Shown: positions 8,270-64,000, numbered from the stretch's first letter. The stretch: DNA of 64,000 nt from an uncultured Gammaproteobacteria bacterium (GCA_963797085.1 CAWCOA010000025.1:80065-144064); one strand, 5' to 3'. Numbers and translations are program-made. Notes: a model not told the origin generated them from the letters alone.

Positions 8270-8344
8270 ATAAAAAGTACCGCTATTTACTGTAAAGATA
8301 GCGATCTTGAATACCATTGCGAGCTACCGATAAAAAAACACGAG

Positions 8345-8773
8345 ATGGCAAAACAAGTCAACGCGTAAACCTCAGCTATGGACCAAGACTGACTTTGAGG
8401 TAAAAGAATCAGCAATCAAGGGTATTGGGAAAGGATTATTCGCGCTCGAACCATACTCCGGGGTGATACCATTGGGCCCTACACAGGGATCCTATTGAAC
8501 GACGAACAGTGCTATACCGAACCCTATGCCAGTTCTCACTATACCCTTTGGTTGTGCAAAGACACCAACATTGTGGCCGAGGGCAAGCAGGCAAGTTATA
8601 CGCGCTACATCAATCACAGCGATAAACCTAACGTGCGGTTTGTTGTGTCGACCCGCTGGAAGAAAGCACGCGTTGAGGCGACAAAACGAATCCGCCCAGG
8701 AGAGGAACTGTTCCTCGACTACGGCCCCTATTTTTGGGAAGCGGTCGGTATCGAGAAAAAGAGCCGAAAATAG
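8345..8773 (+). pseudogene. SET-domain protein gene disrupted by two indels
   Basis: Three frames are needed. ATG 8345 (MAKQVNA) stops at TAA 8366-8368. The next frame (..RKPQLWTKTDFEVKESAIKGIGKGLFALEP) stops at TGA 8496-8498. The third is ORF 8495-8773 (..ILRGDTIGPYTGILLNDEQ..YTRYINHSDKPNVRF..IRPGEELFLDYG). The motifs GxG..FA, YxG, NHS and ELxxDY are SET-domain hallmarks. Confidence 0.7.
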
Positions 8774-8930
8774 GCAGGGTAGGTAACGCGTGCTTCAATG
8801 CATAGCGCGGCAAGGAAGGAGATCATGCCAGACTCCATGCACCAGCAGGGTAATGAGAGAATAATCAGGCCGAGATTACCCATCCGCCGACTCGGCAGAG
8901 AGAACGGTAAATATAAAAGTTCAAATCACC

Positions 8931-9695
8931 TTGCCATGCTCAAAGTTTGCTTTCCGCATGGCCCCATCAACAACCTGTTCAGAGTCAGTCGCCTTTGTGA
9001 AAGCAGCGATGATCATCAATAACCTCCTGCCTGGCAGGCGCTATCCGTCACGTCCGCTGCAAAAACGGGATGATCTGCATGAGCACGATGATCCAAAGGC
9101 CATGGACCGGCTGGGTGTCACGTCAGATGATCTGCATAGCGCGTTGTTGGAGTACGGCGCTTTTCTGGACGTCAGCGAAGAGGATCTAAGCCAGGTTTAC
9201 AAAATGGCGGGAATGCATTCCTACCGGCGTAAAATGGGTGAGATCAGCTGTGCCGACATCATGTCCCGTGATCTGATAACCATGGAGTTTGGCACCGAGT
9301 TGGAAGAGGCATGGGCCCAGCTGCGTCTGCACAAGATCAAGGCGCTGCCTGTGATAGATCGGGCGCGCAGGGTGATCGGGATTGTCACCCTGGTGGATTT
9401 CCTGAAGCGCGCCAATCTCAAAACTTACGAAACCTTCGAGGATAAGCTGATTAAGTTTATCAAGCGCACCCCGACCGTGACCGCGGATAAACCTGAGGTC
9501 GTCGGCCAGATCATGGTATCTCCGGTGTATACCGCACAAGAAGAGATGCATATTGTGAATCTGGTGCCGTTGTTATCTGAAAAAGGGCTGCACCACATCC
9601 CGATTGTCGATGCAGAAAAGCGCCTGGTCGGTATGGTGACGCAGTCTGATCTGATCGCAGCGCTCTATGCAGGCGCGGTGGCTAAGCCTGAATAG
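8931..9695 (+). CDS. CBS-pair protein, probably the 3' part of an HPP-CBS membrane-protein gene that lost its 5' half
   Basis: Two CBS repeats: ADIMSRDLITMEFGTELEEAWAQLRLHKIKALPVID and GQIMVSPVYTAQEEMHIVNLVPLLSEKGLHHIPIVD. The in-frame N-terminus has ..NNLLPGRRYP.., which I recall as the HPP-to-CBS junction. No HPP transmembrane ORF exists in 8774-8990. The start is uncertain (ATG 8931, 9009 or 9102). Confidence 0.6.
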   Translation: MPCSKFAFRMAPSTTCSESVAFVKAAMIINNLLPGRRYPSRPLQKRDDLHEHDDPKAMDRLGVTSDDLHSALLEYGAFLDVSEEDLSQVYKMAGMHSYRRKMGEISCADIMSRDLITMEFGTELEEAWAQLRLHKIKALPVIDRARRVIGIVTLVDFLKRANLKTYETFEDKLIKFIKRTPTVTADKPEVVGQIMVSPVYTAQEEMHIVNLVPLLSEKGLHHIPIVDAEKRLVGMVTQSDLIAALYAGAVAKPE

Positions 9696-9740
9696 AGGTG
9701 AAAACCATACTATAGCGGCCCACTGGGGGGATCTGCTTTC

Positions 9741-10079
9741 TTAAACAGATCTTGGACCTAAAATGTAATTGAGCCCGTAAATATTCTCGATATCCTGTTC
9801 CAGGATTTTCTGATTAAATATTTCACCTGGTCGAACGGTGATGAATGAATCAATCACCTTATCTGATAGTGGTGATGACAATTGGTCGCGCTTGCTTAAT
9901 TCACCGCTCAAGTCGACAACAATCAATATGTCGGCGCCCAATTCTCGCCCAAGCTGTCCTGGCACATTGTTTGAAAAACCACCATCAACTAACAGTTTTC
10001 CACTCATTTCAATGGGTGTGAACACACCAGGGATTGACATGCTGGCACGCATGGCGATGACGATATCACCTTGAATCAA
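9741..10079 (-). pseudogene. internal remnant of a patatin-like phospholipase (PlpD-type, patatin + POTRA)
   Basis: Only ..MRASMSIPGVFTPIEMSGKLLVDGGFSNNVPG.. (the patatin DGG block) and a POTRA-like VRPGEIFNQKILEQDIENIYGL are present. The N-terminal GxGxxG/GxSxG region and any C-terminal barrel are absent. Confidence 0.75.
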
Positions 10080-10193
10080 TACTACCGCGTCACCTGTTTC
10101 GATATCAGAGGCGACAGCCCTAAAACGCGATCTGAACGAACAGTCTGATGACAGGGTGGGCTAGGTCGGCAATCTAGACTACTATTTCCTCAG

Positions 10194-10834
10194 CTACTCC
10201 CAAGTTGCAAAGCGTCCTTCCTCGGCCAGTTCGTGCATGACTCTATCAAGTTGCTGCATATATTCTGTTTTGTCGCCTTTCCAGGCGAGCTTCTCTCCGA
10301 CAAATACATCGCAGAAGAATGGTACTAATAACGCTTCTCCCCTAGGCAGCGCCTTTCCAAGTCCATGTAGATAGATTGGGATCACTGGGATCTCTTGATG
10401 ACGCTCGACCAAACGCGCAATGCCTTTCTTAAATCCAGCAAGGTGTTCAGGCTCACCACGGGTTCCCTCAGGAAAGAAGATCAGGAGCTTTCCCTGCTGC
10501 AGTGCTTGATCCACTGGGACAAGGGGGTCTTCACCTTTTACTCTGGTTTGTCGTTTCAAAGGAAGGATGCCAATAATGTTGAGTGCAAACCAGGCTAACA
10601 GGCTGTTACGCAGAAAATAGTCCATCGCCGCAACTGGCTGTACTTGAGGCAGCAACTTCACTGGCAACAAGGTCATGAGTACCAGCGTATCCAGATGACT
10701 GTTATGGTTAGCCACCAGGATTGCCGGCCCTTTTTTGGCAGCCTCTCTCGATGACGGACATTAAGCCCCAACATCACCATCACCACAAACCGGACAAAAA
10801 TATTAAAAAAAAGGAAGCGTAGAATTCTGTTCAC
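10194..10834 (-). pseudogene. PlsC-family lysophospholipid acyltransferase with homopolymer frameshift
   Basis: GTG 10832-10834 opens VNRILRFLFFNIFVRFVVMVMLGLNVRHRERLPKKG. The frame then changes to ..PAILVANHNSHLDTLVL (HX4D motif) ..FFPEGTRG. The frames join if the T6 run at 10731-10736 (A6 on the coding strand) had one more base. Confidence 0.8.
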
Positions 10835-10836
10835 GG

Positions 10837-12589: not shown

Positions 12590-12766
12590 GCTGTCGGAAA
12601 AGCCCTGGTCGCATACCTTGAAGAGGGTCGGCCGAAAGGAAGTACCAGTCGCCAGGTCTTCTTACGATGCCAACCGCCGTTTTCGCCATTAACTACCAGC
12701 AACGCTGTCGTAAGGGTGGTACGGCAAGCGCTGCAGCGGGCGGGTGTGGCCAAACAACCCCATGTC
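12590..12766 (+). pseudogene. fragment of a RitA-type tyrosine recombinase (remnant of a second RIT element)
   Basis: AVGKALVAYLEEGRPKGSTSRQVFLRCQPPFSPLTTSNAVVRVVRQALQRAGVAKQPHV aligns with residues about 300-360 of the intact RitA at 57099-58349 (DVGNALVAYLEDGRPTGSTSRQIFLQCHPPFQPLATSNAVVKVVRRALQRAGVAKQPRV). Nucleotide identity is roughly 80-85% by eye. Homology stops abruptly on both sides. Confidence 0.8.
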
Positions 12767-12793
12767 GAAGGTCTCATCGCCTTCCAAGGTCAG

Positions 12794-13159: not shown

Positions 13160-14707
13160 GAGCCTTGCGGGGACTTTGCGGGATCGGTAGTGGCGCGCGG
13201 ATGTGAAAGGGTTGGGGAGAGCCAGGTATGGCCATAACGGGCCACAAGGCGTTCGGCCGCCTCCGGCCCCCAGCCCCCGGCCTGATAGTTGGGAAAATCA
13301 GAGGCCGGGTTGGCCTCCCAGACCTCCAGCACTGGTTGCAGCAATTGCCAGGCGGCCCGCACCTGGTCGGCGCGCATGAACAGAGTAGAGTCACCTTCCA
13401 GCAGGTCCTGCAGCAGGGTCTCGTAGGCGCCTGGGGATGCCTTGCCGAACGCATCCTGATAGGCAAAGCGCATATCCACTGGACGCAGGCGCAGCGGCGA
13501 ACCCGGCTCCTTGGCCATGAATTTGAGGATGATGCCTTCCTGCGGCTGGAGCTGTAAGACCAGCCGGACCGGTTGGGCATTCAGCCCGGTGGCGGCGGGG
13601 AATGCATTGTGCGGCACGTCACGGAAGCGGATGGAAACCTCCGAAACAGTCTCGGCCAGGCGTTTGCCGGTGCGCAGGTAGAACGGCACATCCTGCCAAC
13701 GCCAGTTATCGATCAGCAGGCGTCAGCGCCGCATAGGTTTCGCGGTTGGAGTCCGGCGCGATACCCGGTTCATCGCGGTAGCCGCTTGCGCGTTCGCCCT
13801 GGTTCCAGCCCGCCGCATACTGACCGCGAACTGCGAACTGGGCGACGGCGTCTGGCGGTATGCGTCCGACAGGCGCGCAGCACATCGACCTTCTTGTTGC
13901 GGATGTCCTCGGCGTCATAGACCACCGGTGGCTCCATGGCGATCAGGCACATGATCTGCAGCAGGTGGTTCTGCACCATGTCGCGCAATGCACCTGCCTG
14001 TTCATAGTAGCCTGCGCGGTGTCCGACGCCCAGGGTCTCTGCCACGGTGATGGTACATGATCGATATAGCGGCGGTTCCAGATGGGCTCGAAGATCGCGT
14101 TGGCGAAGCGCATCGCCAGAATATTCTGCACCGTCTCCTTGCCGAGGAAATGGTCGATACGATAGATCTGGCTTTCGCGAAAATGCGCCGCCAGGGTTTC
14201 ATTGATCCGCTCAAAAGATTCCAGGTCACGCCCCAGAGGCTTCTCCACCACGATGCGCGCCCGCTGTCTGTCTCTGGCAAGTCCGGCGGCGGCCAGGCCA
14301 CCCGCCACGGCGCCAAACAGGCTCGGTGGGATCGCCAGGTAGAAAACGATGGCTTCATCGTGATCGCCACGGGGTGCCGCAAGCAGTGCTTTCAGTCCCT
14401 GGTAGCCTTGCACATCGTTCAGATCCATGGCATGGGTGTGAATAGCGGCGGCAAAGTCATCCCACTCCTCCGGGTTCGGCGCGCCGCGTCGGGAAAAGTG
14501 CTCGATGCCGTCACGCAGCCGCGCCGCCAGTGTTGTGTCATCCAGTTCACGATCGACCCCGATGAGCCGGAAATCGTCGGGCAGCTGCTGGTCAAGGTAG
14601 AGATTGAACAGGGCTGGGACAACCAACCGCCAGGCCAGATCACCGGCGGCGCCGAACAGCACAAAGGTTGCCTTATCCGGGAAGGGTAAAATCGGCTTAA
14701 CGCTCAT
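13156..14707 (-). pseudogene. zwf: glucose-6-phosphate dehydrogenase with three frameshifts
   Basis: Four ORF pieces join into a full Zwf: [34 protein letters not shown] | [38 protein letters not shown] | [24 protein letters not shown] | RLLIDNWRWQDVPFYLRTGKRL... The indels are at about 14052, 13871 and 13727. Confidence 0.9.
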
Positions 14708-15850
14708 GGCATCGCACCTTGTAATGCTAATGTGCCGAGTGTAGTGAGCAGCTTTCGGTAGGGTGAGACGAACTTCTCGATACCTTCCTCCTCCAACTGG
14801 TCGTCAATCTGCTGCAGCTCGATACTGAGGTCGGCCAGACCTTGCATGATGCGGGGCGCATCGGCGATGGCCTGATCGATGCGCAGCTGCGGTTCGCCCT
14901 GTTCCCGGTATGCCGCCAAGGTCTCTGGCGGTAGTGTATTGACGGTCTGCGGGGCGATCAGGGGCTCCACATATTTCACCGCACTATAACTTGGGTCTTT
15001 GACGCCGGTACTGGCCCACAGCAAGCGCTGGACCTGCGCACCGGCTTGCGCCAGCGCCTGCCAACGGGAACCCGCAGTGATTTCACGGAAGTGCCGGTAG
15101 GCCTCGGCGGCGCTGGCGATGGCCGCCTGGCCGTGCAATGCATGGCAGGCCGCTGCCTGTGGCGGCTGACTCTCGGCTATCTGATCGAGCTGAGCATCCA
15201 CCACGACATCGATGCGACTCAGGAAAAAGCTCGCCACAGAGGCAACCCCCATCAGCGGCAATCCCTTGGCCCGGCGGGCCTCCAGCCCATCCATGTATGC
15301 ATCGAGCACCTGCTGGTAACGCGTCACCGAGAACAGCAGGGTCACATTGACGTTGATTCCCTCGGCGAGCAGGGTGCGTACCGCCGGCAGGCCTTCAAGG
15401 GTGCCCGGAACCTTGATCATGATGTTGGGTCGCGCCAGCTTGTTCCATAACACCCGCGCCTCGGCCACCGTGGCCTCGGTGTCGCGGGCCAGCAGCGGCG
15501 AAACCTCGATACTCACATAGCCGTCGGCGCCGTTGCTGGCATCATACAGGTCGCGAAACAGGTCGGCCGCCGCCCCGATATCCTCCAGTATCAAGTGTTC
15601 GTAGAGCTGTTCCCGGGTCGTTCCCTGCTGTTTCAGCAGCTGAATCTCTTCGTGTATAGGCAGCGCCCTTGGCGATGGCCTTTTCGAATATCGCGGGGTT
15701 GGAGGTCAGGCCTGCGAGACCATCCTCGCTGATCAAGCGTTGCAAAGCACCATCCTGGAACATGGCCCGCTCGATATAGTCCAGCCATACACTTTGTCCA
15801 AGGGATGGAGTTGTAAGACGATTGTGTGCATATGACCCGGTATGTGAGAT
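14704..15850 (-). pseudogene. tal: transaldolase with at least one frameshift and no in-frame start
   Basis: [49 protein letters not shown] is followed by a frame change near 15651-15654 into [41 protein letters not shown]... The only nearby ATG (15829-15831) is out of frame, next to a cacaca repeat. Confidence 0.85.
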
Positions 15851-15893
15851 TCATGCACATTACTACCGTCCATGATGAAGGGGTCAGTCCGTT

Positions 15894-16971
15894 TCATAAC
15901 CATTTGTTGCGTTTAAACAAGTAGAGCATAAGACCTGAAATCGCAACCATCACCAACCAGATAGCCGGATAACCATAGTCCCAGCGCAGCTCCGGCATGG
16001 CCCACCAGCTCTGGGTATTGTTGCCGAAATTCATGCCGTACACACCGACGATGAAGGTCAAGGGGATAAACAGTGTGGCGATGATGGTGAGCAGGCGCAT
16101 CGACTCGTTGAGCCGGTTGCTGACACTTGAAAGATAGACCTCCAGCATACTGGCCGCCATTTCGCGATAGCTCTCCATCAAATCCATGATCTGCACGGTA
16201 TGGTCATAACAGTCGCGCAGGTACATGCGCGTGTCCTGTTCGATACAGGGACACTCCTCGCGGTACAGCCTGACCAGCATCTCCCGCTGCGGCCAGAGCA
16301 TGCGCCGTATCAGCAACAGGTCGCGGCGCACCTGATGTATCTCGGCCAGGGTATCCTGGCCTGGACTGTCCAGCAGTTGCTCCTCCAATGCCTCGATCTG
16401 CTCACCGTATCGCTCCAGCAGAGGGAAAGCCATGATCGACGATATTGTCCAGCAGCGCATACAGGAGGTAGTCACTCTGTCGTGAGCGGATCTTTCCACT
16501 GTGCGCCCGCAGGCGCATGCGCACCGGCTCGAACGGATCGTCCGGCGCATCATGAAAACTCACCAGGAACCCATTCCCCATAAACAGGCTGATTTGTTCA
16601 GTCCTGGTTCTGCCGTCATCATCTTCTACCGGCAGGTGAACAATGGCAAAGAGCTGATCGTCATATTCTTCCAACTTGGAGCGCTGCCCGGTGTTGGCAA
16701 CGTCTTCCAGTGCGAGTGGGTGCAGATGTAGCAGGCGTCCAAGTTCGTGCAGGGTCTCGGCCGAGGTGCCGCCGCGAATATGCACCCAGGTGGTCGAATC
16801 CGCATTCTCCAGATATGGTTCGATCTCTGTTGCAGAGGCCAATTCCTGTTCAAAAAACTCCACACCAGAGTAGTCGATGAGGTGGATCGTAAACGGCACA
16901 CCTGAGACGAGGGGTTCCAAGGTGCCAGGCGCGGTGCCGGGCGGGTGATAGCTCTTGCCGAAAACCTTCAC
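15894..16971 (-). pseudogene. corA: CorA Mg2+/Co2+ transporter with one frameshift
   Basis: MKVFGKSYHPPGTAPG..LLYALLDNIVDHGFP is followed by a frame change near 16432-16437 into LLERYGEQIEALEEQL..FIVGVYGMNF (GMN motif)..FKRNKWL. Confidence 0.9.
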
Positions 16972-17297
16972 TGCTCTGTTCGCCTCCTGATGGGGTGCAT
17001 GTTGTGACCCGGATCTACGGGTCTCTTTTAAGTTAGTTTATCATGCCGGGTGATGCGGGCATCCAACTTACTTAGGCAACTTTAAACGTCAACAATGGTG
17101 CTTTCCAGATCAAATATCAGTTCATGGTTGCTGCATATCGCAGGTTAATTTATCGGGCTCATCTTGATGCTTGCGTCTTGTTTTCTTGCCGTGGAACTGA
17201 GATACAAAAGTTAATCATCGTGGCTCGGGTCGATCGCGTCCGATGCCCACGCGTTGCCTAAAGATCGTCTGATAGTTGGGATGTTACTATTACTCCT

Positions 17298-18245
17298 TCA
17301 AGGTATATCCGCCCCCTGTGTTCCGTCCGGTTGCCAGCCAATATCCACTGCGCTACGGCGTACGTGGATGTCCCGCTGCGGGAACGGTATCTCGATACCA
17401 GCCCGACGCAACTCTTTCTCAATTGCATAGTTGAGATCGCTCAAGGTAACCAGTCGCTTTTCAATTTCACTGATGAAGCAGCGCAATTCGAAGTTCAGTG
17501 AACTCTCTCCAAAGCCTGTAAACAACATCTTCGGAGGACTGACTTTCTTACCATCCAACATAACCAGTGGATGTACCCTCGCCACACTCATCAGCACTTC
17601 AGTGACCTTGTCAACATCCGAGCCGTAAGCCACACCCACCGCTATCACCATGGTAACTGCACCCCAGGCAGACCAACTTAATGTATGAATGAGTGATGTA
17701 GGTATCGAGATACTCGGCGAGGTTATGGCGCCACTCCAGCGGGGCCACCAGCACTTGACCCAACGCGATCCAGATGGGCTGACTTCGCGCGAACAGGTAG
17801 TCTTTGAGCTGATCAGTCTGGAGGTCTTTAATCTGCTTGAGCAGTGTTGTGGTTTCCAAGAGAAGCGCCTGACAAGATGCCAGTCGCGCACCTGTCTCGT
17901 CGATGTTATGCGTCAGGTCCTTTTTGGCCTGCGTTACATTGCTGTCGGTGGATTCGTCGCCAGCACCCAAGGTTTTGATATTGTCCTGAAGGTTCTGTAA
18001 AGCGCTACTTGCTTCCTCTACACACTGCTGCGCCTGGTTATGAATCCCCGCCAGTGAATCGTCCGTTTTCGCAGGCAGGCTATACGACTTGTCGCGACCC
18101 ATCGCAGCCTGGCAAGATCTTCTGCAATGCGCTTGATAGCCGTATGCGCGTCCGATAACCAATCGGTTTGGGGCTCGGCCGCGAATGTTGCCAGACTGCT
18201 CACGAGGATGCAGGCAGTGATAAATGCAGCAATTAAACGTTTCAT
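17298..18245 (-). pseudogene. MscK/KefA-like mechanosensitive channel remnant (frameshift plus large internal deletion)
   Basis: Three parts survive: the signal peptide MKRLIAAFITACILVSSLATFAAEP, a coiled-coil periplasmic part (..LLKQIKDLQTDQLKDYLFARSQPIW..), and directly after it the MscS-type C-terminal domain (VTMVIAVGVAYGSDVDKV..GIEIPFPQRDIHV). All transmembrane helices are missing. The junction is at about 17640-17690 and a frameshift at about 18100-18140. Confidence 0.75.
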
Positions 18246-18447
18246 ACTGAAATACTCCTGACCCTGCAGGAAGCTATGGATAAGACTGGCGTTGCTGCTG
18301 CGGCTTCTGCTGCTAATGTTGTGATTAATAGCCTATCTGGCCATGATGGGTTTCAGACGCAATAACCTGGACAGACGCCGTCAGTTCCACAGTCAAGGTC
18401 CAGGAGCATTTTCGCAGCATGACGATCGAGCCAAGGCCAGCCTACGT

Positions 18448-18960
18448 TCAGCTTGTCTTGGCGGCAAGTCCCAACATCAATAGTGACAGGCCATCAACAA
18501 TAAGACTGACGCCAATCAGTAGTCCGACTAACCAGGCGGAGGTAGATGGCCCGCCAACAATAAACGCAAATGCAAGCAACAGCGATAATACCCCGTTAAA
18601 CATTAACCACCCCCAACCACGTCTAGGCCGCATTTCCCTGGCGGCGGCAACACCGGCAAAGCCATCCAGCAGGAAATAGATAGCCAACATCAAGCCGAGC
18701 GCCATCGTACCTGCGATGGGGTGCAAGATAATGAGCAGACCCACTGCAATCAGTATAAAAGGCTTGAGCCAGACAACCCATTGATCGCGGAAACCATGCC
18801 AAGTGATATACACAGCAATACCACCAGCGATTATCATCAGCCAACCAGCAAACAATGCGACTGCCATCGACATAAACTGCGGCAATGCGATACCTGCAAT
18901 ACCCGCCAGCAACAAGACAATACTGGTAATGATTACGATCTTACGTGATTGACTGTCCAT
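18448..18960 (-). CDS. hdeD: HdeD-family (DUF308) acid-resistance membrane protein
   Basis: MDSQSRKIVIITSIVLLLAGIAGIALP.. has six hydrophobic segments with the repeated G-rich HdeD pattern (LLDGFAGVAAA, SLIVDGLSLLML). The ATG is at 18958-18960. The frame is open upstream into the sulP remnant. Confidence 0.72.
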   Translation of the reverse strand: MDSQSRKIVIITSIVLLLAGIAGIALPQFMSMAVALFAGWLMIIAGGIAVYITWHGFRDQWVVWLKPFILIAVGLLIILHPIAGTMALGLMLAIYFLLDGFAGVAAAREMRPRRGWGWLMFNGVLSLLLAFAFIVGGPSTSAWLVGLLIGVSLIVDGLSLLMLGLAAKTS

Positions 18961-20732
18961 GATTACTTCCAGTGACTTATGCATAGCTGAAACCTTCATT
19001 ATTAGTGGGATACTTTTGTACCCGTTATGTCCTAAGCGTATCATCTCGCGGTAGGCATTCACAACATCACCTGCGGCTGCATAATAGGCATTCTCACCGA
19101 TCAGCTCGGTGAGCCCGGAACGATCCAGTTCGGCCCTGACCTCGTCCGAGACCACGGCGATGACCAGGCGGACACCCTGTCTCCTTCAGCAATCCGCTGA
19201 TTAAAAGCAAAGTCTCGGCGGCCGAAAAATCCACATCGTCGATGGCGGATGCGTCAATGCAGAACCAGTTCAGCGACGGTTGCGCATCTTCGGCCAGTTT
19301 GAGCACCTGATCCAAGAGCAATTCGGCATTCGCATAATACATGCTGTGGGTAAATCGGTAGATCATCAGGCCTGGGGCCAGCTGGGCCGGACTGCTGACC
19401 GGTAGTGCGCGCCAGTGCCCGTCATCGGTGGTCACCACCACGACGTTTTTCGGCCGATATCCGTGACGCGTATGCGCTACCAGTGAGAGGACGATGGCGA
19501 GGATGATGCCCTGCTCGACCCCCCAGAAAACCACCACCACCGTCGTTATCAACGCCACCCAGAATTCCCAGGGACGCTCAGCATAGATCTTGCGCATGCC
19601 TTTGACGTTGATCAGTTCCACACCGATTATGAACACGACAGTCGAGAGCACGGCCTCCGGCAGTACGCCAGTGGCGCGGTAAAAAACAGCAGTACCATGA
19701 GCACAATCAGCGTCGTGAACAAGCTGTGCCAGCTGGCTATGCCCGCCGGCGCTGTCGACCATCTGGGTTTTGGTCGGGCTGCCATTGACCACAAAGGTTC
19801 CGGATAGTGCTGCGCCGACGTTTGCCACACCCAGGCCGATCAGATCCAGATTTTCGTTGAAACGCTCGTTATAGCGGGTGGCGTAGGCGCGCGAGGTCGC
19901 GGCGGTCTGCGCGAGGATAACGATGAACATCGCAAAAGCGGGAGGGATCAATTTCTGAAACAGTGGCCAGTTCCAGTCGACCTCAGGAAACCCAGGAGTC
20001 GGCAATCCACTTGGAATCATCCCCAGTACATGGACGCCCTGGGATTGCAGATCCAGCGCCCAGCTGGCAGTGATAGCCCCAACTACCGCTATCAATGCCC
20101 CAGGGATTTTCTTCGAGACAAGCTTCGCCCCGATGATGATCGCGAGCACTGCTGCCGATAGGCCCAACACATAGGGATTGAGCTGTTCGAGCTGCCGCCA
20201 GTCATGCAGCATCTGGTGAAACGGGCCGTGCCCTCGCACCGGCGACGCCCAGCATTCCCGTGAACTGGCCGAGGGCGACTTGGATACCGACCCCAGTCAG
20301 GAATCCGACGAGTACCGTACGCGACAGAAAATCCGCCAAGAATCCAAGGTGCATGATGCGCGCGATAATCAGAAAGCCCGCAGCCATGAGGGCGAGTATA
20401 CTCGCCATCGCCACATATTCGGCGGTGCCGGAGGCTGCCACGCCAGCAAGGCCGATAGCGAGCATTGCAGCAGTCGCCGAGTCGGCGCCCACCACCAGGT
20501 GCCGGGATGAGCCAAAGATCGCGAACAAGGCCATCGGAATAAGGATGGTATAGAGACCGGTAACCACAGGCATGCCGGCGATCTTCGTGTAGCCCATCAC
20601 TTCGGGAATGGCGAGGGCTGCCAAAGTAAGGCCCGCAATAATCTCCCCCGGAATCTGCGAGGAGTTAACGGGCAGGATGCCCTGCAGGATGGGCCAGTGG
20701 AAATCCTTGGTATTATCCTTCACCGTCATCAT
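18961..20732 (-). pseudogene. SulP-family anion transporter (with STAS domain) carrying four indels
   Basis: The sequence runs ILPVNSSQIPGEIIAGLTLAALAIPEVMGYTKIAG..GQFTGMLGV | ..GHGPFHQMLHDW..NGSPTKTQMVDSAGGHSQLAQLV | TTLIVLMVLLFFTAPLAY | LPEAVLSTVVF..LLKETG | VRLVIAVVSDEVRAELDRSGLTELIGENAYY. The indels are near 20240, 19717, 19663 and 19174. No stop codon precedes hdeD. Confidence 0.85.
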
Positions 20733-20805
20733 CTGATCCTCCCCGGTTACGAATCGACATGCATCTGATGCTGCAGATCCGTTGTATCTTTATTAGTGTT
20801 TCCGC

Positions 20806-50008: not shown

Positions 50009-50047
50009 CTATCCCACTTCAGCCCCGACAATGTATGGAACATATCA

Positions 50048-52154: not shown

Positions 52155-52155
52155 C

Positions 52156-53906
52156 GTGGACACCACCGCTGCTCACATTTTCGGCTGTCAGCAAGACCTT
52201 CCAAGCTGGCGGAGGGCAGGCGCAGGCGCTGGAAGGGGTAGGTTTCAGTATCCAGCCCGGCCGGGTGACGGGGCTGATCGGCCCGGATGGGGCGGGTAAG
52301 ACCACCTTGATGCGTCTCGCCGCCGGTTTGCTGTTGCCGGATGCGGGCGAGATCCGGGTGCTGGATATCGACGCCCTCGCCGAACCGTTGGCGGTGCAGT
52401 CCAGCGTTGGCTATATGCCACAGCGTTTTGGTCTCTATGAAGATCTCAGCGTGCAGGAAAATCTTGATCTCTACGCCGATCTGCAAGGCATGCCCATGGC
52501 GCAGCGGCCGGCCCGTTATGCGGAACTGATGCGGATGACCGGCCTGGGTCCGTTTACCCGACGGTTGGCAGGGCGTCTTTCTGGTGGCATGAAACAGAAG
52601 TTGGGCCTGGCCTGCACCCTGGTGCGTTCACCACGACTGTTGTTGTTGGATGAACCCACTGTCGGGGTCGACCCGGTTTCACGCCGTGAGCTTGTGGCAG
52701 ATCGTCTATCGTCAGGTACAGGAGGCGGGCATGAGTGTGCTGCTCAGCACCGCCTATCTGGATGAGGCGGAACGCTGTGACGAGGTGATGCTGGTTCACC
52801 AGGGCAAACTGCTGGGTCAGGGTGAACCGGCAGAGTTCAGTCGCGCAGTGGCGGGGCGGACATTTCTGGTGAGCGCCAAGGGGATGAGTCATCGCCGCTT
52901 GCAGGAACAACTGAACCGTGCCCCCGGCGTGCTGGATGCTCTGATAGAAGGTGAGGCGGTGCGCCTGGTCATGGAAACGCCTCAGGCGCCCACACCCGAA
53001 CTACTGCTGCCGGGGCAGGCCGATGTTCATATCGCGCCGGTGGCGCCGCGTTTCGAAGACGCCTTTGTCGCGCGCCTGAAAACCCGTCGGCCTGAGCCCG
53101 AGGCAGCGCTTTCACTGCAGCTGAAAATAAACGCGGCTGAGGGCGACGAGGTGATCCGGGTAGACAAGCTGCAACGACGTTTCGGTGATTTCATCGCGGT
53201 GAACAATGTCAGCTTCAGCGTGCGCCGGGGTGAGATCTTCGGTCTGCTGGGGGCCAATGGCGCCGGCAAATCCACCACCTTTCGTATGCTCTGCGGGCTG
53301 TTGCCTGCCAGCGGCGGCGAGCTGGCGGTAGCCGGACATGATCTGCGCCGCGCCGCCGCTTCCGCACGCGGGCGCATTGGCTACATGGCGCAGAAGTTTT
53401 CGCTCTACACCAATCTGTCGGTGACCCAGAACCTGCGTTTTTTCTCCAGCGCCTATGGCCTGCGCGGAAAATACCAAACTGAACGTCTCGACTGGGCGTT
53501 GACCACCTTCGAACTGGCTTCGTTTCGGGATGCCAATGCCGGTGATTTACCCTTGGGCTACAAACAGCGCCTGTCCTTTGCCGCGGCACTGATGCACCAG
53601 CCGGAGATCCTGTTTCTCGACGAGCCCACCTCCGGCGTCGATCCCCTGGCACGGCGGGAATTCTGGGCGCGTACCAATGCCCTGGCCGAGGCCGGGGTTA
53701 CGGTGCTGGTCACCACCCATTTCATGGAGGAAGCCAATTACTGTGACCGGCTGGTGATCATGGCTGACGGCGAAGTACTGGCCGAAGGCACACCGTTGGC
53801 AATGAAGACCCGTGCGCGCACAGTGGACAACCCCGACCCGACCATGGAGGATGCCTTCATTCAGCTGATCGAACAGCGCCAGGAAAAATCGGGGGCCGCA
53901 GCATGA
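52156..53906 (+). pseudogene. duplicated-ATPase ABC protein (YbhF-like), one or two frameshifts
   Basis: The first half has [43 protein letters not shown], then a frame change near 52694 into WQIVYRQVQEAGMSVLLSTAYLDEAERCD. The second half has GLLGANGAGKSTT..LFLDEPTSGVDP. The GTG at 52156 is out of frame with ..PPLLTFSAVSKTF, which implies a further indel at about 52160-52170. Confidence 0.85.
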
Positions 53907-55029
53907 CCCCGTTGGCCCGTATGCGTTTGTGGGGCATGATCCGCAAGGAGAGCCTGCAGATCCTGCGTGATCCATCGAGCATCTCCATCGCCTTCGTGAT
54001 GCCGGTGGTGTTGCTGTTTCTGTTCGGCTACGGTGTCTCGCTGGATGCGAAACATATTCCGGTGGGCATCGTCATCGAACAGCCGGACACCGCGACCCAG
54101 TCACTTGCGGGTTCCTTTGAACGCTCCGAGTTTTTTCGTCCGCTGCACTTCGATGCCATTCAAGCGGCGCAGCAGGCGCTGGATGAACGAAAGATCGACG
54201 GTATCATCTGGCTGCGCAACAATTTTTCCGCCAGGCTGTTGTCCGGTCACGAGGCACCCATCGGCGTCATCATCAATGGCGTGGACTCCAATCAGGCCAA
54301 TATCACCCAGGGGTATATTCAGGGCGCCTGGCAGGCGTGGCTCGGCCTTTATGCCGAGAGTCGTGGCCAGCCGCTGCCCATGCCGGTGAGTCTGGAACAA
54401 CGGGTGTGGTTCAATGCCGCGCTTGTCCAGCCGTCTGTTTCTGGTGCCGGGGTTGATCGCCATCATTATGACCCTGATTGGTTCACTGCTCACCGCCATG
54501 GTGGTGGCGCGCGAATGGGAGCGCGGCACCATGGAGGCGCTGATGGTGACGCCACTACACAGGGGCGAGATACTGGCGGGCAAGCTGGTTCCTTATTTTG
54601 TGCTGGGCATGGGTGGCATGTTATTCAGTGTGGCCCTGGCAGTGTGGCAGTTTGAGGTGCCGCTGCGCGGTTCCTTCTGGTTGCTGATGCTCAGCTCGGC
54701 GCTGTTCATGTCTGGTGGCGCTGGCTATCGGGTTGTTGATTTCCATCGTCTCGAAAAATCAGTTTGTGGCGGGGCAGTTGGCCATCATCGTTACCTTTTT
54801 ACCTGCCTTTATCCTGTCCGGGTTTCTGTTTGATATTCATTCCATGCCCGCCTGGATACAGCTCATCACCCATTTGGTGCCGGCACGCTATTTCGTGGCC
54901 ATCCTGCAAACCCTGTTTCTCGCGGGTGATGTCTGGCCGGTGGTGCTGGCCAACATGAGCGCGCTGTTGATAATGTTGTTGCTCTTTTTCACCCTGGTGT
55001 GGCGCAAGTTCCACAAGCGGCTGGAGTAG
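53903..55029 (+). pseudogene. ABC-2 permease (YbhS-like), two frameshifts
   Basis: MTPLARMRLWGMIRKESLQILRD..RVWFNAAL | SSRLFLVPGLIAIIMTLIGSLLTAMVVAREWERGTMEAL..SSALFM | VALAIGLLISIVSKNQFVAGQ..WRKFHKRLE. The indels are near 54423 and 54708. Confidence 0.85.
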
Positions 55030-56905: not shown

Positions 56906-56977
56906 CCGGCCAAGATTCATGTTTATGCCGAGCTCGGCATAAACACGATAATCCCGAGTTCCGGATTATGTCGAGTA
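56906..56977. repeat. RIT left terminal inverted repeat
   Basis: CCGGCCAAGATTCATGTTTATGCCGAGCTCGGCATAAACACGATAATCCCGAGTTCCGGATTATGTCGAGTA is the reverse complement of 60356-60427 except for one base (56910). It contains the 22-bp perfect palindrome TTTATGCCGAGCTCGGCATAAA (56922-56943). Confidence 0.9.
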
Positions 56978-57098
56978 GGCGGTTTTTATCCGCCTAATCA
57001 TAGAGAATTCCTACGTTTTCCGTTTAAACTGCTCGACATAACCCAACGATAGGGCTTTTCTTCTTCTGTGGCCATTTAGGCCCAGGAAGGAGAAAATC

Positions 57099-58349
57099 AT
57101 GATCGATTCCATCTTTGTTCGGGCATCAGTGCTCGCGCGATTACACCAAAACCCTCTTGTAGCTCATCTAGAGTGTCTCGCTACCACCTTGCACCAGCAA
57201 GGCTACGCACGGCGTAGTATTCAGGACTGTGTACTTGCCGGCGAAAAGTTTGGCTGCTGGCTACATCGGCAAGGCTGCGTATGCACTGCGATCGATGAAG
57301 CGCTTTTGGGGCGCTATGTCGCTGGACTGAAACGTTACCGTTCCGGTAAGCGTTGCAAAGGCGCAGCGGGCTTGAACCATCTATTCAGAATACTGCGCCA
57401 ACAAGGGGTCGTGGTCGAACGGCAAGCAGCGACGCTTATAGCGCCCGTTGATCAATGGCTCGCTCGATACGAGCAATACCTGGAGCAAGTCGTGGGTGCC
57501 GTCGTTAGCACCCGTCAGCGCTATCGTCCGATTGTTCGACAGTTCATTAGAAAATGCTGTATCTCGGGAGAAGTCAATTGGCCCTCATTGAGCGCGCAGA
57601 CAATCACTGAGTTTGTTTGCAAGCAAGCAGCCGCCCGGCAGGGTCATGGACGTAAGCTGCCGAGCGTGGCGGTGCGCTCGTTTTTGCGCTTTCTGGTCTT
57701 TCAAGGTGAGATCAACACCGGCTTAGAGGCCGCGGCACCCCCACCACCACAGTGGACGCACGCGGCGCTGCCGGTCCGCCTGACACCCGAGCAGGTTGAG
57801 CGTGTGGTGGCCGTTTACAAAGAGAAAACAGCCAGCAGTCTGCGCAACCGCGCCATACTCTTGTTACTGGCGCGCCTTGGCCTACGCGCCGGGGAGGTTC
57901 TCACACTGGGCTTGGACGACATCGATTGGTACCAGGGTCGGCTTATTATCCGCCCTGGTAAGACCCACCAGGCACGCACGTTGCCATTACCCCAGGACGT
58001 GGGCAACGCCCTGGTCGCATACCTTGAAGACGGTCGGCCCACAGGCAGTACCAGTCGACAGATCTTCTTGCAGTGCCATCCGCCGTTTCAACCGTTAGCC
58101 ACCAGCAACGCCGTCGTGAAGGTCGTACGACGGGCGTTGCAGCGGGCGGGTGTGGCCAAACAACCCCGCGTCGTGAGTCATATTTTTCGCCACACGGCCG
58201 CCTCTCAGATGCTCAATCAAGGTGCCAGCTTCAAAGAGGTGGCCGACATCTTAGGGCACCGTTCACTACAAACCACAGGCATCTACGCGAAACTGGATTT
58301 GAAGGCGTTGGTTTCGGTAGCACTGCCGTGGTTGGGAGGTGCCCAATGA
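57099..58349 (+). CDS. tyrosine recombinase RitA-type (416 aa)
   Basis: The catalytic set lies in LGLRAGEVLTL (Arg), HIFRHTAAS (H-x-x-R) and GHRSLQTTGIYAKL (His, Tyr). A long N-terminal SAM-like domain is present. Confidence 0.88.
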   Translation: MIDSIFVRASVLARLHQNPLVAHLECLATTLHQQGYARRSIQDCVLAGEKFGCWLHRQGCVCTAIDEALLGRYVAGLKRYRSGKRCKGAAGLNHLFRILRQQGVVVERQAATLIAPVDQWLARYEQYLEQVVGAVVSTRQRYRPIVRQFIRKCCISGEVNWPSLSAQTITEFVCKQAAARQGHGRKLPSVAVRSFLRFLVFQGEINTGLEAAAPPPPQWTHAALPVRLTPEQVERVVAVYKEKTASSLRNRAILLLLARLGLRAGEVLTLGLDDIDWYQGRLIIRPGKTHQARTLPLPQDVGNALVAYLEDGRPTGSTSRQIFLQCHPPFQPLATSNAVVKVVRRALQRAGVAKQPRVVSHIFRHTAASQMLNQGASFKEVADILGHRSLQTTGIYAKLDLKALVSVALPWLGGAQ

Positions 58350-59311
58350 ACATCAATACCGATTTTCTAGATACCCAGTTAACGGCGTATCTGAGCCTGC
58401 GCGAAGCCCTCGGTTTTCAGCTGTGCGCCGAGAAGTTTCTTTTGCCAGAATTTGTCGCCTTTGTTCAAACACAGAACATAACCGGCCCGATTCGCGCCCA
58501 CCTGGCCTTGGATTGGGCCTGTTCCGCCTCCACTCAGCGAGGCGCTAGCGGTGCGGCCAGGCGCTTGAGCATCGCACGCAGGTTTCTGACTTTCGTCCAG
58601 GCCTCAGCGCCGGATACCGAGGTGCCACCCCAAAATCTGTTGCCCAGCGCCAGGCGAACGAAACCGTACATTTTTACACCGACTCAGCTGACGCTGTTAT
58701 TCGAAGCGGCCCGAGCGAGTCGGCCCCAGGCGTCGCTACGCCCCGCCATGTTATCGACCTTGATTGGTCTGTTGGCGAGTACGGGTCTGCGCGTCGGCGA
58801 AGCTATCCGGCTACAGCTGGCAGACGTGAAGTTAGACTTCGATCCCGCTCAACTTTACATCCTGGAGACAAAGTTCCACAAATCACGGATCGTACCGTTA
58901 CATCCCAGCACGGTGGAGCCACTGCGCCATTACGCCGAACAGCGTGCACGCTTAGGCTACGATGGCCTATCGGATTCTTTCTTCTTATCAGAACAGGGAC
59001 GAGCATTGAGTTATCCCGTCCTGCATCGCTGGTTTACCCGGCTGTGTCGGCGACTGGCCATTCAACCTACGGATGACAGTCGGGGTCCTTGCCTGACGTC
59101 GTTTCGGCATACCTTTGCCGTGACCTGTATGCGCCGCTGGTATCAGCAGGGGCTGGATGTGCAAGTCTGGTTACCACACCTGTCGGTCTACCTGGGTCAC
59201 GTACGACCACAAGACAGTTACTGGTACTTAACCGCCGTGCCCGAACTGCTGAACGCCGCAGCGGAGCGGTTCCGCACTTATGCGACCACGGGAGGTGATC
59301 ATGATAAATAG
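58346..59311 (+). CDS. tyrosine recombinase RitB-type (321 aa)
   Basis: ATGA overlap with the ritA stop, with GGGAGG upstream. Motifs are TGLRVGEAIRL, SFRHTFAV and LGHVRPQDSYWYL. Confidence 0.88.
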   Translation: MNINTDFLDTQLTAYLSLREALGFQLCAEKFLLPEFVAFVQTQNITGPIRAHLALDWACSASTQRGASGAARRLSIARRFLTFVQASAPDTEVPPQNLLPSARRTKPYIFTPTQLTLLFEAARASRPQASLRPAMLSTLIGLLASTGLRVGEAIRLQLADVKLDFDPAQLYILETKFHKSRIVPLHPSTVEPLRHYAEQRARLGYDGLSDSFFLSEQGRALSYPVLHRWFTRLCRRLAIQPTDDSRGPCLTSFRHTFAVTCMRRWYQQGLDVQVWLPHLSVYLGHVRPQDSYWYLTAVPELLNAAAERFRTYATTGGDHDK

Positions 59312-60302
59312 CGGCTTGATTGCACCTTATCTGCAAGCGTTCTTCGCCGACTACTTGTGCCAGCAAAAACGCATGAGTCCTCAAACGATTATCAGCTATC
59401 GTGATACCTTCCGGTTATTGTTGACGTTTGTTAAAAATACAACAGGCATCGAGCCCTGCGCATTGCGGGTGGTCGACTTGGATGCACCCGCCGTACTCAG
59501 CTTTCTAGATCACCTTGAGCAGCAGCGCGGCAACTCGGTTAGCTCACGCAACGTCCGGTTGTCCGCTATCAGATCGTTCTTCCGTTTGATTGCCTTGCGC
59601 GATCCCGACAGCGTTGGCCTTGCCACGCGCGTGCTCGCAATCCCCGTCAAGCGGGAAGACAAAAAGCTGATCGGGTATCTGACACGAACAGAGATTCAAG
59701 CGCTGCTCGCCGCGCCAGACCGTTCGCAGTGGGCAGGCCAGCGTGATCACGCATTGTTTCTAACGCTGTACAATAGCGGTGCTCGGGTCTCCGAAATCAT
59801 CGCCCTGAAGCGCGATCACATCTGTTTTGGCGCTACCAGCTTCTTGCAGCTGACGGGCAAGGGCCGAAAAGAACGTACGATACCGCTATGGAGCGAAACC
59901 AGTAAGGTCCTGAAAGCCTGGTTTCGTAAGCTCGATAATAACGCAGATAGCATCGTTTTCCCCAATGCCAGGGGCAAACACCTGTCGCGCGACGGTGTTG
60001 ATTACCTGTTAAAACGGTCTGTCCGCAAAGCAACCATCGACTGCCCCGGCCTTGCGACCAAGACGATAACTCCTCACATCGTTCGCCACGCGACTGCCAT
60101 GCATTTGCTACAGGCTGGCGTGGATATCGCAACGATCGCGCTCTGGCTCGGTCATGAAAGTATCGAGACCACTCACGTTTATCTCGAAGCTGATCTCGCC
60201 CTCAAAGAAAAGGCACTGGCAAAACTTGACCCTGTAGAGGATGGGCGCATGTTGCGGTTTAAGGCAGATGACCCACTGCTGGCGTTTCTCGCTTCGCTCT
60301 GA
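59301..60302 (+). CDS. tyrosine recombinase RitC-type (333 aa)
   Basis: ATG 59301 follows GGGAGG and overlaps the ritB end by 11 nt. Motifs are SGARVSEIIAL, HIVRHATAMHLL and GHESIETTHVYLEAD. Confidence 0.88.
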   Translation: MINSGLIAPYLQAFFADYLCQQKRMSPQTIISYRDTFRLLLTFVKNTTGIEPCALRVVDLDAPAVLSFLDHLEQQRGNSVSSRNVRLSAIRSFFRLIALRDPDSVGLATRVLAIPVKREDKKLIGYLTRTEIQALLAAPDRSQWAGQRDHALFLTLYNSGARVSEIIALKRDHICFGATSFLQLTGKGRKERTIPLWSETSKVLKAWFRKLDNNADSIVFPNARGKHLSRDGVDYLLKRSVRKATIDCPGLATKTITPHIVRHATAMHLLQAGVDIATIALWLGHESIETTHVYLEADLALKEKALAKLDPVEDGRMLRFKADDPLLAFLASL

Positions 60303-60355
60303 TTATGCCGAGTAAGATCTCATGAAATCGCTACCTCGTATACGCTCACCTACGT

Positions 60356-60427
60356 TACTCGACATAATCCGGAACTCGGGATTATCGTGTTTATGCCGAG
60401 CTCGGCATAAACATGAATCTTGTCCGG
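60356..60427. repeat. RIT right terminal inverted repeat
   Basis: Reverse complement of 56906-56977; contains the same 22-bp palindrome at 60390-60411. Confidence 0.9.
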
Positions 60428-62199: not shown

Positions 62200-62318
62200 A
62201 ATCGATTTCCGATGCCTACAGTAGATTATATAGCCGTGTCCTCCGCAATTATTATCGCGCCAGCTCTCGACCCTACCGGGCTTGAGTATCTGCGATATGC
62301 GTTATTGGGAAGAACTGT

Positions 62319-62879
62319 CTACGCCCAAAGACTTCCCAACGAAAAACTAATCGCCTCGAACGGCGGTTGCCTGATGGAATCTTCTTCCTTGAGCGTTTCG
62401 AGCAGCAACCAGTGACCGTCATCCTGTAAATGGTACACCTCCAGGGTGCGTGCGTCCGGGTCTATCAGCCAGAGATGGGGCACGCCTTCCCGGGCATAAA
62501 TCGGCATCTTCAGGGCACGGTCAGTACGGGCCGTGGAGGGGGAGAGGATCTCACAGGCCCAATCAGGCGGGAGTTCGAACCAGGCGGTTTCGGGCAGTTC
62601 CGGCATGGGTTCCCGCCGCCAGCCGGCGAGGTCAGGAACGATGACGTCCTGGCCCAGGTGAAGCTCCGGCCCGTCAAGAATCCACCAGCCGCCTGGACCA
62701 CCGACACCCGCGCTGAAGGGGCCGCCAAGGGAGAACCCCAGCGCGGAATAAGCGAGCGCATGTTTCGGTGCAAGGCATGAGTGGGTGTGCAGATGACCGT
62801 AGAGGATCTCTCCTACCTGGTTTTCCGGGAGGGCGATGATATCCTCGTAGGTAGCGTTACGCTTGGCCAGTTCGGTCAT
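62319..62879 (-). CDS. Uma2-family (DUF820) putative endonuclease, second copy
   Basis: ..YEDIIALPENQVGEILYGHL..VIVPDLAGWR..ELPPDWACEILSPSTARTDRALKMPIYAREGVPHLWLIDP..; 186 aa, intact. It is distantly related to the 60509 copy. Confidence 0.78.
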   Translation of the reverse strand: MTELAKRNATYEDIIALPENQVGEILYGHLHTHSCLAPKHALAYSALGFSLGGPFSAGVGGPGGWWILDGPELHLGQDVIVPDLAGWRREPMPELPETAWFELPPDWACEILSPSTARTDRALKMPIYAREGVPHLWLIDPDARTLEVYHLQDDGHWLLLETLKEEDSIRQPPFEAISFSLGSLWA

Positions 62880-63034
62880 GGATTATTTCCGGGTTCTGTC
62901 TAAAAGGATTCTAGCCTTGTATCCGGGTTGAAATCAGACATTTGCGATTCGTATTATGGATAAAAATTAGAGTGTCCATTATATCTCCCCGTGCGTTCAA
63001 ATAACTAATCCGCAATTGTATATCAACAGCTTAG

Positions 63035-63071
63035 CACCCATTGCATGTGCCACAATGCCTTTGTGTCTTGC
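63035..63071. repeat. 37-bp direct repeat, copy B
   Basis: CACCCATTGCATGTGCCACAATGCCTTTGTGTCTTGC lies 34 nt from the 3' end of the integrase pseudogene. Confidence 0.8.
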
Positions 63072-63104
63072 CTGAGTTGAGGCTTACAATCGAATGATTA
63101 CTGG

Positions 63105-64000
63105 TCAGTCATTTTCCCGCTGATCCGTCCTCGCCACCGCCTCATGCAGGGCCCCGTCCTCATGGGACACATACAGCATCGTGGTGTTGATGTCCTTATG
63201 CCGGGCAAATCGCTGGGTCAGTCTGACATCGGCATGGCGTCCCACATTGGTAATGGCGGTATGGCGGGTGAGATGGGGCACCGCCTGGGCCAACTTGGCG
63301 GCCCGGGCTGGGTTCGACGCTTTCAGCTGTTCTGACGCCGCTTTAAACACGGCCTTCACCAACTCATAGATCCGATAGGGCTTAATGGGCCGCTTGCCTT
63401 TGATGCTCGCCACCAGCGGAAAGGCCTCATCCTGGGGATCGCCCCGCATCGGATAGGGCGCCAGCCCGAGGTGCAGGCGATAGCGTTTGAGGTCCTCGAG
63501 CAGTTGACGGGGTGACCGGCACCCAGTCCTGCCGCCCGCCTTTACCTTTGATATGAGCCGCCAGACGACCCGCCCGTCCGGCAGTTCGTGTTCCCGCAAA
63601 CTGCCCATGGTATGACTGGCCACCTCAAACAACCGCATCCCGGTAACCAGCAACAGCCGTAACAACCAGCGCTTGCGCTCATAGTCATCGATCTGGCGCG
63701 GCGTCTTTCGCGGCAGGTCTTCGATGGCCTGCCAGAGCGCCGCCTGTTCCTCGGCAAAAAAGGCCTCGCGATGGTGGCTGATCTGTGGCCGTCGAAATGC
63801 CTTCGATCAGGGGATTCACCGAGAGATAGCCCCGCTCAGTCAGGAAACTCAGCAAGGCGTTGATCACCACCAGGCTCTGATGCACACTCGACTCCGAGCG
63901 GGCCGAGGTAAAAGGTCGCCATTGGCCTGAGCGACGACTGTATTTATGATTCGCCGGCATGCACCAGCTCGCCGGCGGATCCAGCAGGAACTGCTGATAG
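63105..64000 (-). pseudogene. phage-type tyrosine integrase, 5'-partial at window edge, three indels
   Basis: ..YQQFLLDPPASWCMPANHKY..WRPFTSARSESSVHQSLVVINALLSFLTERGYLSVNPL changes frame at about 63800-63812 into ..AFFAEEQAALWQAIEDL..LLLVTGMRLFEV (Arg)..HLTRHTAITNV..ARHKDINTTMLYV. A -1/+1 indel pair (about 63553 and 63508) garbles IKGKGGRQDWVPVTP. Confidence 0.8.

Follow-up and report, generated by a model that had tools for sequence, protein, structure and literature searches.

Genes of the window and their interruptions

The subject of this analysis is a 64,000-nucleotide stretch of DNA (GCA_963797085.1 CAWCOA010000025.1:80065-144064), hereafter the window, which is part of a 149,875-bp contig that derives from a metagenome and represents an uncultured gammaproteobacterium, and in which the intact genes from gyrA to tyrA are followed, between 8.3 and 64 kb, by genes many of which are interrupted, among them those for transketolase, transaldolase and glucose-6-phosphate dehydrogenase. 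By exact-sequence look-up, the proteins of the window, truncated fragments included, are recorded at NCBI and ENA from one contig. In a genome scan, the best identity of GyrA (22-2547) was 76-77%, to GyrA of uncultured Sedimenticolaceae-like gammaproteobacterial metagenome-assembled genomes, the closest match of Xfp reached 93% and, in a metagenome scan, that of the mprF-like product 65%, most genes of the window being without a sequenced close relative.

About 25-28 of the approximately 48 genes located between 8.3 and 64 kb are interrupted, truncated or stop-carrying, and some 26-30 small indels were located in the fragments that were dissected. A previous sequence-only reading of this DNA had proposed that about half of the genes after tyrA are broken, and this was borne out by Pfam scans, tblastn and frameshift-aware alignment; the many small indels that it described are also present, although fewer were located than the 35 or more that it had counted. 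The lesions are thus confirmed to exist in the sequence as given, where a continuous reading of many genes requires that frames be joined. Likewise, as had been stated, the reading frames of gyrA-tyrA, xfp, glgX, the mprF-like gene, cls and all three RIT recombinases run without interruption, and so do those of cdsA, the gnd-like gene and the ybhR-like gene. Additional to the earlier inventory are two frameshifts in glgP, one in tal, further 3'-terminal lesions in sulP and an in-frame TAA stop at 31925.

Open reading frames (ORFs) were scanned against Pfam, packed so that neighboring ORFs score separately, and were then mapped to window coordinates; tblastn was run with Escherichia coli K-12 orthologues as references, and a purpose-written protein-to-DNA aligner that allows frameshifts placed lesions to within a few codons, as did tblastn. 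Since E. coli DauA and CorA were too distant as references and the aligner over-called frameshifts in sulP, frameshifts of this gene were retained only with backing from Pfam, from ORF structure or from the close relative L178. By these means, Pfam domains were found divided over adjacent ORFs or frames for G6PD_N and G6PD_C, Transketolase_N and Transket_pyr, HlyD, CorA (3-131/124-292), Sulfate_transp (3-138/147-380), Acetate_kinase and ABC2_membrane_3 (the last two in three pieces each). The lesions fall into two classes that are cleanly separable, namely Class A, single-base frameshifts in otherwise perfect genes, and Class B, which corresponds to ordinary decay (Table 1).

Single-base frameshifts in otherwise complete genes

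Class A is made up of some 20 frameshifts of a single base, spread over ten genes (zwf, tal, corA, sulP, ackA, glgP, tkt, and the ybhG-, ybhF- and ybhS-like genes of an ABC exporter), the proteins of which match their orthologues over the whole length after frame repair. Five such indels in sulP and three in zwf are accompanied by no other damage. Between 19714 and 19664 of sulP, frameshift-aware alignment shows a transmembrane-like alternative frame, and a further missing base lies at 19018, in the spacer after the gene. The final ~45 codons of the STAS domain of sulP are fused to the DUF308 ORF (18451-19185), in the same frame, because the extra base at 19041 puts the sulP stop codon out of frame. 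Extra bases previously reported at 52694, 45661 and 13871 correspond to sites that we place at 52692, 45658-45661 and 13862. In the exporter, amino acid identity to the relative L177 was 86% for YbhG, 93% for YbhF, 94% for YbhS and 90% for YbhR, so that the broken ybhF and ybhS are closer to this relative than the intact ybhR.

The spectrum of these lesions is strongly one-sided, with an extra base (+1) at 17 of 20 sites and a missing base (-1) at the other three (binomial test against 1:1, P=0.0013), and none of the localized Class A sites falls in or next to a run of four or more identical bases. For 12 insertions the position could be fixed exactly by DNA alignment to relatives, and only 2-3 of them copy the adjacent base; examples, with the extra base in brackets, are TTC[A]TGG, GAGC[T]TG, GCG[C]TTG, ATG[T]CTG, CTG[A]CGC, ACG[C]ATA, CCC[G]TCG and GGA[G]ACA. 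At nearly every insertion, removal of either of two adjacent bases leaves a synonymous or conservative codon, as in the four to five cases of CTTG or TCTG at leucine codons (CTG/TTG), in CCCG for CCC/CCG, in GAGA for GAA/GAG, and in glgP, where the window reads AGCC against ACC in one relative and GCC in another. The great majority of spontaneous 1-bp insertions are duplications by slippage, and bacterial pseudogenes are reportedly biased toward deletions (for example, Mira, Ochman and Moran 2001). Consequently, a spectrum that is insertion-biased, mostly non-duplicative and located outside homopolymers argues against natural erosion, in which deletions and slippage would dominate. The sequence-only reading had taken indels outside homopolymers as a sign of biology; this argument points in the opposite direction, since slippage duplication accounts for most of the 1-bp insertions that arise naturally.

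When one base was removed per insertion and one added at the deletion, zwf, glgP, tkt, ybhG, ybhF and ybhS became complete ORFs, and these six corrected ORFs, with 11 indels between them, contain no internal stop in 3,315 codons. A random substitution in these six genes has a 3.1% chance of producing a stop, so that, on the assumption of ~10 substitutions per indel (the natural ratio), about three nonsense codons would be expected in the six genes and about six over the ten, and none was observed. An accumulation of stops beside frameshifts is therefore seen only in the HlyD/RbbA-like operon of Class B and not in Class A, where single-base indels and intact corrected ORFs are what errors of a long-read or strain-mixed assembly would produce. 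The ratio of nonsynonymous to synonymous substitution rates (dN/dS) against relatives is not raised in the broken genes (ybhS, 0.075 with two frameshifts; glgP, 0.10 with two; zwf, 0.12 with three; ybhG, 0.21 with one) when compared with the intact ybhR (0.146) and xfp (0.043), a comparison that has low power for very recent inactivation.

Moreover, none of the Class A lesions is present in the relatives L176 (89% nucleotide identity, over zwf), L177 (ybhGFSR genes on a MEGAHIT contig, 88.6%), L178 (sulP-DUF308, 93%) and L179 (glgP-tkt-gnd-mprF, 93% overall), which cover ~89-98% nucleotide identity and include the 98%-identical glgP of L179. Alignment of the frame-joined genes to close relatives had been proposed as a check of erosion, and its outcome speaks against that reading. 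The relatives L176, L177 and L179 came from corrected-junction queries; same-strain sequence across any +1 site was not found by sequence look-ups and two chimeric corrected-junction queries, the latter returning no match of at least 97% identity and being dominated by AckA, ABC and transketolase homologues.

Divergence from L179 (5987-13453, against 42575-50047 of the window) is mosaic, with identities of 98% in the N-terminal part of glgP, 95% in tkt, 92% in gnd and 90% in mprF, which suggests that related populations recently exchanged the glgP-tkt segment, by recombination or transfer. Lesions relative to L179 are found in the two most similar segments, glgP and tkt, and none in gnd and mprF, the pattern expected of collapsed near-identical populations. 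The whole carbohydrate cluster at 37.9-47.2 kb (ackA-glgX-glgP-tkt-gnd-like, beside xfp) has a GC content of 0.58-0.67, against 0.53-0.57 in gyrA-tyrA, and may have been horizontally acquired; its transketolase belongs to a 684-residue subfamily common to Sideroxydans, Sulfuriferula, Halothiobacillus and Acidithiobacillus.

Two further sites involve homopolymers. At the plsC-like site, the T6 tract at 10731-10736 had been pointed out as an indel, and it does differ from relatives, where two contigs of 93% identity, L173 (Logan) and L174 (JGI), have A7 on the coding strand and the window has A6; the second site lies in a small ORF upstream of PPK2. Long homopolymers are thus one base shorter at two sites, a difference that natural length variation could also produce, and both shortenings are probably consensus errors, judging from the contigs compared.

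Remnants, mobile elements and ordinary decay

The clearest Class B lesions are those of the HlyD/RbbA-like operon (30.2-33.1 kb), which is paralogous to the ybhGFSR-like operon (51-56 kb) and carries four to five nonsense codons, frameshifts and an internal deletion. Frameshift-aware alignment of its adaptor gene to YbhG and YhiI passes through the stops, the codons of which were read directly, and the ATPase-permease gene, by tblastn and the same kind of alignment, is without its middle, most of the C-terminal half of the ATPase and the linker having been lost (Pfam ABC_tran 7-93 of 137). A permease homologous to the RbbA-like one is fragmented in L179 too. Six in-frame nonsense codons had been listed for the window, and direct reading agrees for those at 30636, 30702, 31225, 31638 and 50217, whereas that at 12794 could not be shown to be one. 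Stops and frameshifts are present at about 1:1 in Class B, together with large deletions, and for this reason we regard it as natural decay.

The mscK-like gene matches MscK at residues 992-1101 only, by both tblastn and frameshift-aware alignment, and Pfam finds only MS_channel_3rd; in L178, over the part corresponding to 16870-19531 of the window, corA follows directly after DUF308 and the 1.4-kb mscK-like stretch is absent. The internal deletions that had been claimed for the mscK-like gene and the ABC ATPase are therefore both supported by frameshift-aware alignment. A 79-nt sequence between the gnd-like and mprF-like genes, matched to the corA 5' end by a repeat search, is a remnant of a second corA-like gene. 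At 12593-13237, a RIT recombinase remnant is directly adjoined by an N-terminal fragment on the minus strand that is similar to a GH15 glucoamylase; this fragment ends at 12794 and looks like a gene cut off by a mobile element. Two hdeA-like copies (21809-22104 and 26213-26507) are 83-85% identical, the second being a fragment (profile 28-91) beside the IS3-family element, and their register slips by one base within a T run (22045-22052 and 26448-26456).

With respect to mobile elements, the complete RIT element resembles known members in having three tandem tyrosine recombinases within long terminal inverted repeats, and a degraded copy is present at 12.6 kb; it stands apart from the question of gene decay and marks the region as rich in mobile elements. 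Directly upstream of it are a parD antitoxin gene and an apparent ParE fragment. A JGI contig of 99.3% identity (L180) leaves the window sequence at 60477, ~50 nt outside the right RIT repeat, so that this junction is strain-specific. Taken with the IS3- and IS6-family elements, and with the patatin-, mscK-, corA-, hdeA- and Uma2-like remnants, these features are the mobile elements, remnants and truncations that erosion would leave behind. Class B is genuine, ordinary decay of accessory DNA in a stretch rich in mobile elements, and it accounts for a minority of the lesions.

Table 1. Features of the window with their lesions (+1, extra base; -1, missing base; A, Class A; B, Class B).
Feature	Coordinates	Strand	Class	Lesion or state	Basis
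zwf (glucose-6-phosphate dehydrogenase)	13180..14707	-	A	-1 at 14055, +1 at 13862, +1 at 13723	Frameshift-aware alignment to E. coli Zwf and 92%-identical relative L176; exact indels from DNA alignment
tal (transaldolase)	14704..15890	-	A	+1 at ~15655; first ~60 residues in other frame	Pfam TAL_FSA covers profile 40-284 only; LGQSVWLDY... found in upstream frame (three-frame translation)
corA-like Mg/Co transporter	15897..17037	-	A	One +1 at ~16420 (TTTCCC[T]CTG)	Split Pfam CorA; frameshift-aware alignment
sulP-family transporter	19000..20789	-	A	+1 at ~20230; +1/-1 pair at ~19714 and 19664; +1 at 19181 and 19041	3'-end indels seen by DNA alignment to L178 (JGI metagenome contig, 93% identical)
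ackA (acetate kinase)	37934..39109	-	A	+1 at 38905, -1 at 38516	Pfam in three pieces; frameshift-aware alignment to E. coli AckA full length, without stops
glgP (alpha-glucan phosphorylase)	41279..43827	-	A	+1 at 43519-43523, +1 at 41375	DNA alignments to L082 and L179; protein alignment 695/850 identical
tkt (transketolase)	43980..46030	-	A	+1 at 45658-45661, +1 at 44874-44880	DNA alignment to L179 (94.8% identical)
ybhG-, ybhF-, ybhS-like ABC exporter genes	51122..55029	+	A	+1 at 51786 (ybhG), 52692 (ybhF), 54422 and 54711 (ybhS)	Frameshift-aware alignment to E. coli and L177; exact indels from DNA alignment
ybhR-like, fourth exporter gene	55033-56145			Intact	
plsC-like acyltransferase	10197..10836	-		N-terminus shifted by -1 in homopolymer (plus-strand T6, 10731-10736)	L173 and L174
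Small ORF upstream of PPK2	35024..35461	-		A6 at 35069 against A7	99%-identical L175 (SPAdes contig, coverage 2.4)
mscS-like channel	26859..27724	-	B	-1 at ~27242 (CGG GAC read as CGGAC)	
HlyD-like adaptor pseudogene	30267..31260	+	B	Stops at 30636 (TGA), 30702 (TAG), 31225 (TAG); +1 at ~31011	
RbbA-like ATPase-permease pseudogene	31347..33116	+	B	Stops at 31638 (TAG), 31925 (TAA); several frame changes at 31.86-32.17 kb	
mscK-like remnant	17300..18450	-	B	~110 C-terminal residues (17343-17679) and N-terminal coiled-coil fragment; ~2 kb internal deletion	
Patatin/PlpD-like remnant	9744..10160	-	B	Truncated on both sides	Pfam Patatin 149-186 of 191
RIT recombinase remnant	12593..12767	+	B	83% identical to 57999-58173	Repeat search
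IS3-family element	25013..26115	+	B	orfA with extra -1 at ~25025 besides usual orfA/orfB frameshift	Pfam HTH_Tnp_1, HTH_21, rve; three-frame translation
IS6-family transposase	50100..50801	+	B	In-frame TAA at 50217	Pfam DDE_Tnp_IS240; codon read directly
corA-like 5' remnant	47254..47332	-	B	79 nt, 78% identical to 16916-16994	
Uma2-family fragment	62322..62882	-	B	Profile 62-168 of 172	Pfam
Complete RIT element	56906..60427	+		Three tyrosine recombinase genes (57099-60302); 72-nt inverted repeats, 99% complementary	Repeat search; three Pfam Phage_integrase matches

Consensus error weighed against gene decay

From the spectrum, the lack of stops, the dN/dS values and the relatives, the ~20 Class A frameshifts are probably, for the most part, consensus errors that overlie a mobile-element-rich region with ordinary pseudogenes. 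Reads of closely related co-occurring populations would have been collapsed into one consensus and, at a single-nucleotide polymorphism, both alleles would have been written side by side to give a spurious +1 (CTG/TTG as CTTG; ACC/GCC as AGCC), and long homopolymers would have been under-called by one base. We infer the sequencing platform and the strain mixture, and hence the artefactual status of the frameshifts; sister contigs of the same ENA submission range have Flye-style names (contig_1226, contig_33721) and carry split genes too. Nanopore-only assemblies of less than ~40x coverage keep protein-truncating indels (PMC9262707). In this context, the window is similar to assemblies affected by long-read (Nanopore, PacBio continuous long read) or strain-mixed errors, the so-called IDEEL problem for which the repair tool proovframe exists, in that ~0.5-1 indels per kb split perfect genes, A7 is twice shortened to A6, and the lesions do not appear in the assemblies of relatives and are spread nearly at random. 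It differs in that the best-known nanopore error is the homopolymer deletion, whereas here most lesions are +1 outside homopolymers. The caveat of the earlier reading, that a strain-mixed or poorly polished consensus could contribute, is in our view the better primary explanation.

Several observations weigh against consensus error. The missing base of the mscS-like gene, seen by frameshift-aware alignment and translation, recurs exactly, in a gap-free alignment, in the Logan contig L172 (ERR11523668; 99.96% identity over 2,781 nt), which indicates that the reads do contain at least some small indels; this is the only lesion spanned by an independent assembly, and the run of L172 may or may not be the source of the contig. 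Furthermore, in a relative represented by two independent assemblies (L081/L082, 9486-9989), all that is left of ackA beside xfp, on the side of glgP, are two remnants (80 and 72 residues), a genuine loss in that lineage, a CAG codon of the window corresponds to an in-frame TAG in the DUF308 gene of L178, and in L179 an ABC permease is in fragments and glgP is cut short; decay is thus clearly real in this lineage. Local GC at lesions is 0.61 against 0.55, a value that no random draw reached, the broken genes being the GC-rich ones, and this association fits technical and biological causes alike. In addition, the GC-rich mprF (2.6 kb), glgX (2.1 kb) and RIT element (3.5 kb) are free of lesions, a leftover heterogeneity between genes that selection could also explain, and the idea that both alleles were kept, which suits every insertion, is partly unfalsifiable from one sequence.

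That most or all lesions are genuine, the outcome of a very recent and rapid pseudogenization of accessory genes and some genes of central metabolism under relaxed selection, seems unlikely to us, even though structural decay and mobile elements are present in the same stretch, one small indel recurs in an independent contig, relatives show gene loss, a nonsense codon and a fragmented permease, and the core genes gyrA-tyrA and xfp are intact. Mild clustering of the small indels is also in favor of it, and the decay had been described as patchy. Intact stretches do exist, and the contrast is weaker than it appears: when 30 indels were placed at random on 64 kb, the largest stretch free of indels measured at least 10.7 kb in 12% of the simulations and the sizes observed for the two largest gaps were jointly reached in 1-4%, and the observed variance-to-mean ratio in 2-kb bins is 1.37 (P=0.09), so that the patchiness is weakly non-random (P about 0.04-0.12). 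Eroding genomes such as those of Mycobacterium leprae, Sodalis glossinidius, Shigella and Yersinia pestis likewise combine many interrupted genes, mixed lesions, truncations linked to insertion sequences and an intact core, a picture that suits the HlyD/RbbA-like operon and the gene remnants. The window departs from them in that the 17:3 excess of +1, with non-duplicative bases and no homopolymers, is the opposite of the deletion-biased, slippage-dominated spectrum of bacterial pseudogenes, in that genes with up to five indels carry no nonsense codon, in that dN/dS is not elevated, and in that the lesions are private to this assembly, none being shared with relatives of 93-98% identity. Transketolase and transaldolase are, moreover, unlikely to be dispensable, although paralogues could exist elsewhere. 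Genuine erosion of all these genes would need an unusual, insertion-biased mutational process that does not involve slippage. Early genome erosion, as first suggested for this DNA, is thus retained for the HlyD/RbbA-like operon, the remnants, the truncations at insertion sequences and RIT elements, and the split mscS-like gene, and not for the bulk of the small indels.

A reading in which the +1 insertions are real and ~20 very recent, non-templated single-base insertions arose in conserved metabolic and transport genes of a free-living, sediment-type gammaproteobacterium, we consider quite improbable; if it were true, either an unusual mutational process that generates insertions, together with the loss of many genes at nearly the same time, or decoding through the +1 sites would have to operate. 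Decoding of real +1 sites, whether through transcript editing or through programmed +1 frameshifting on the ribosome, is scarcely credible, in spite of the strong +1 bias and of affected proteins that are otherwise full length and under purifying selection. As in prfB or in the shifty stops of the Euplotes type, one extra nucleotide lies in an otherwise intact coding sequence; however, the sites of the window have no common or conserved motif, slippery or rare codon or adjacent zero-frame stop, the zero frame continues for tens of codons past each of them, -1 lesions occur in some of the same genes (zwf, ackA, sulP), and close relatives encode the same proteins without the extra base or a shift. 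Errors linked to DNA methylation motifs, in the form of nanopore miscalls associated with Dam GATC sites, are very unlikely as well: five of 13 sites lie within 12 nt of a GATC, where 16% would be expected, and GATC is commoner in the window (404 copies) than base composition predicts (~245), but the enrichment is marginal, the median distance is unremarkable and the other eight sites lie 15-253 nt from any GATC.

In brief, the window taken at face value would describe a bacterium with ~25 pseudogenes, in early erosion, that has lost transketolase, transaldolase, glucose-6-phosphate dehydrogenase and acetate kinase. The location of an indel outside homopolymers is no evidence of its biological origin in a single sequence, for which the ratio of insertions to deletions, the copying of a neighbor by the inserted base, the ratio of stops to frameshifts and dN/dS are better discriminators. 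If most of the breakage is, as it probably is, an artefact of the consensus, metabolic reconstructions and pseudogene counts of this bin would be untrustworthy before polishing.

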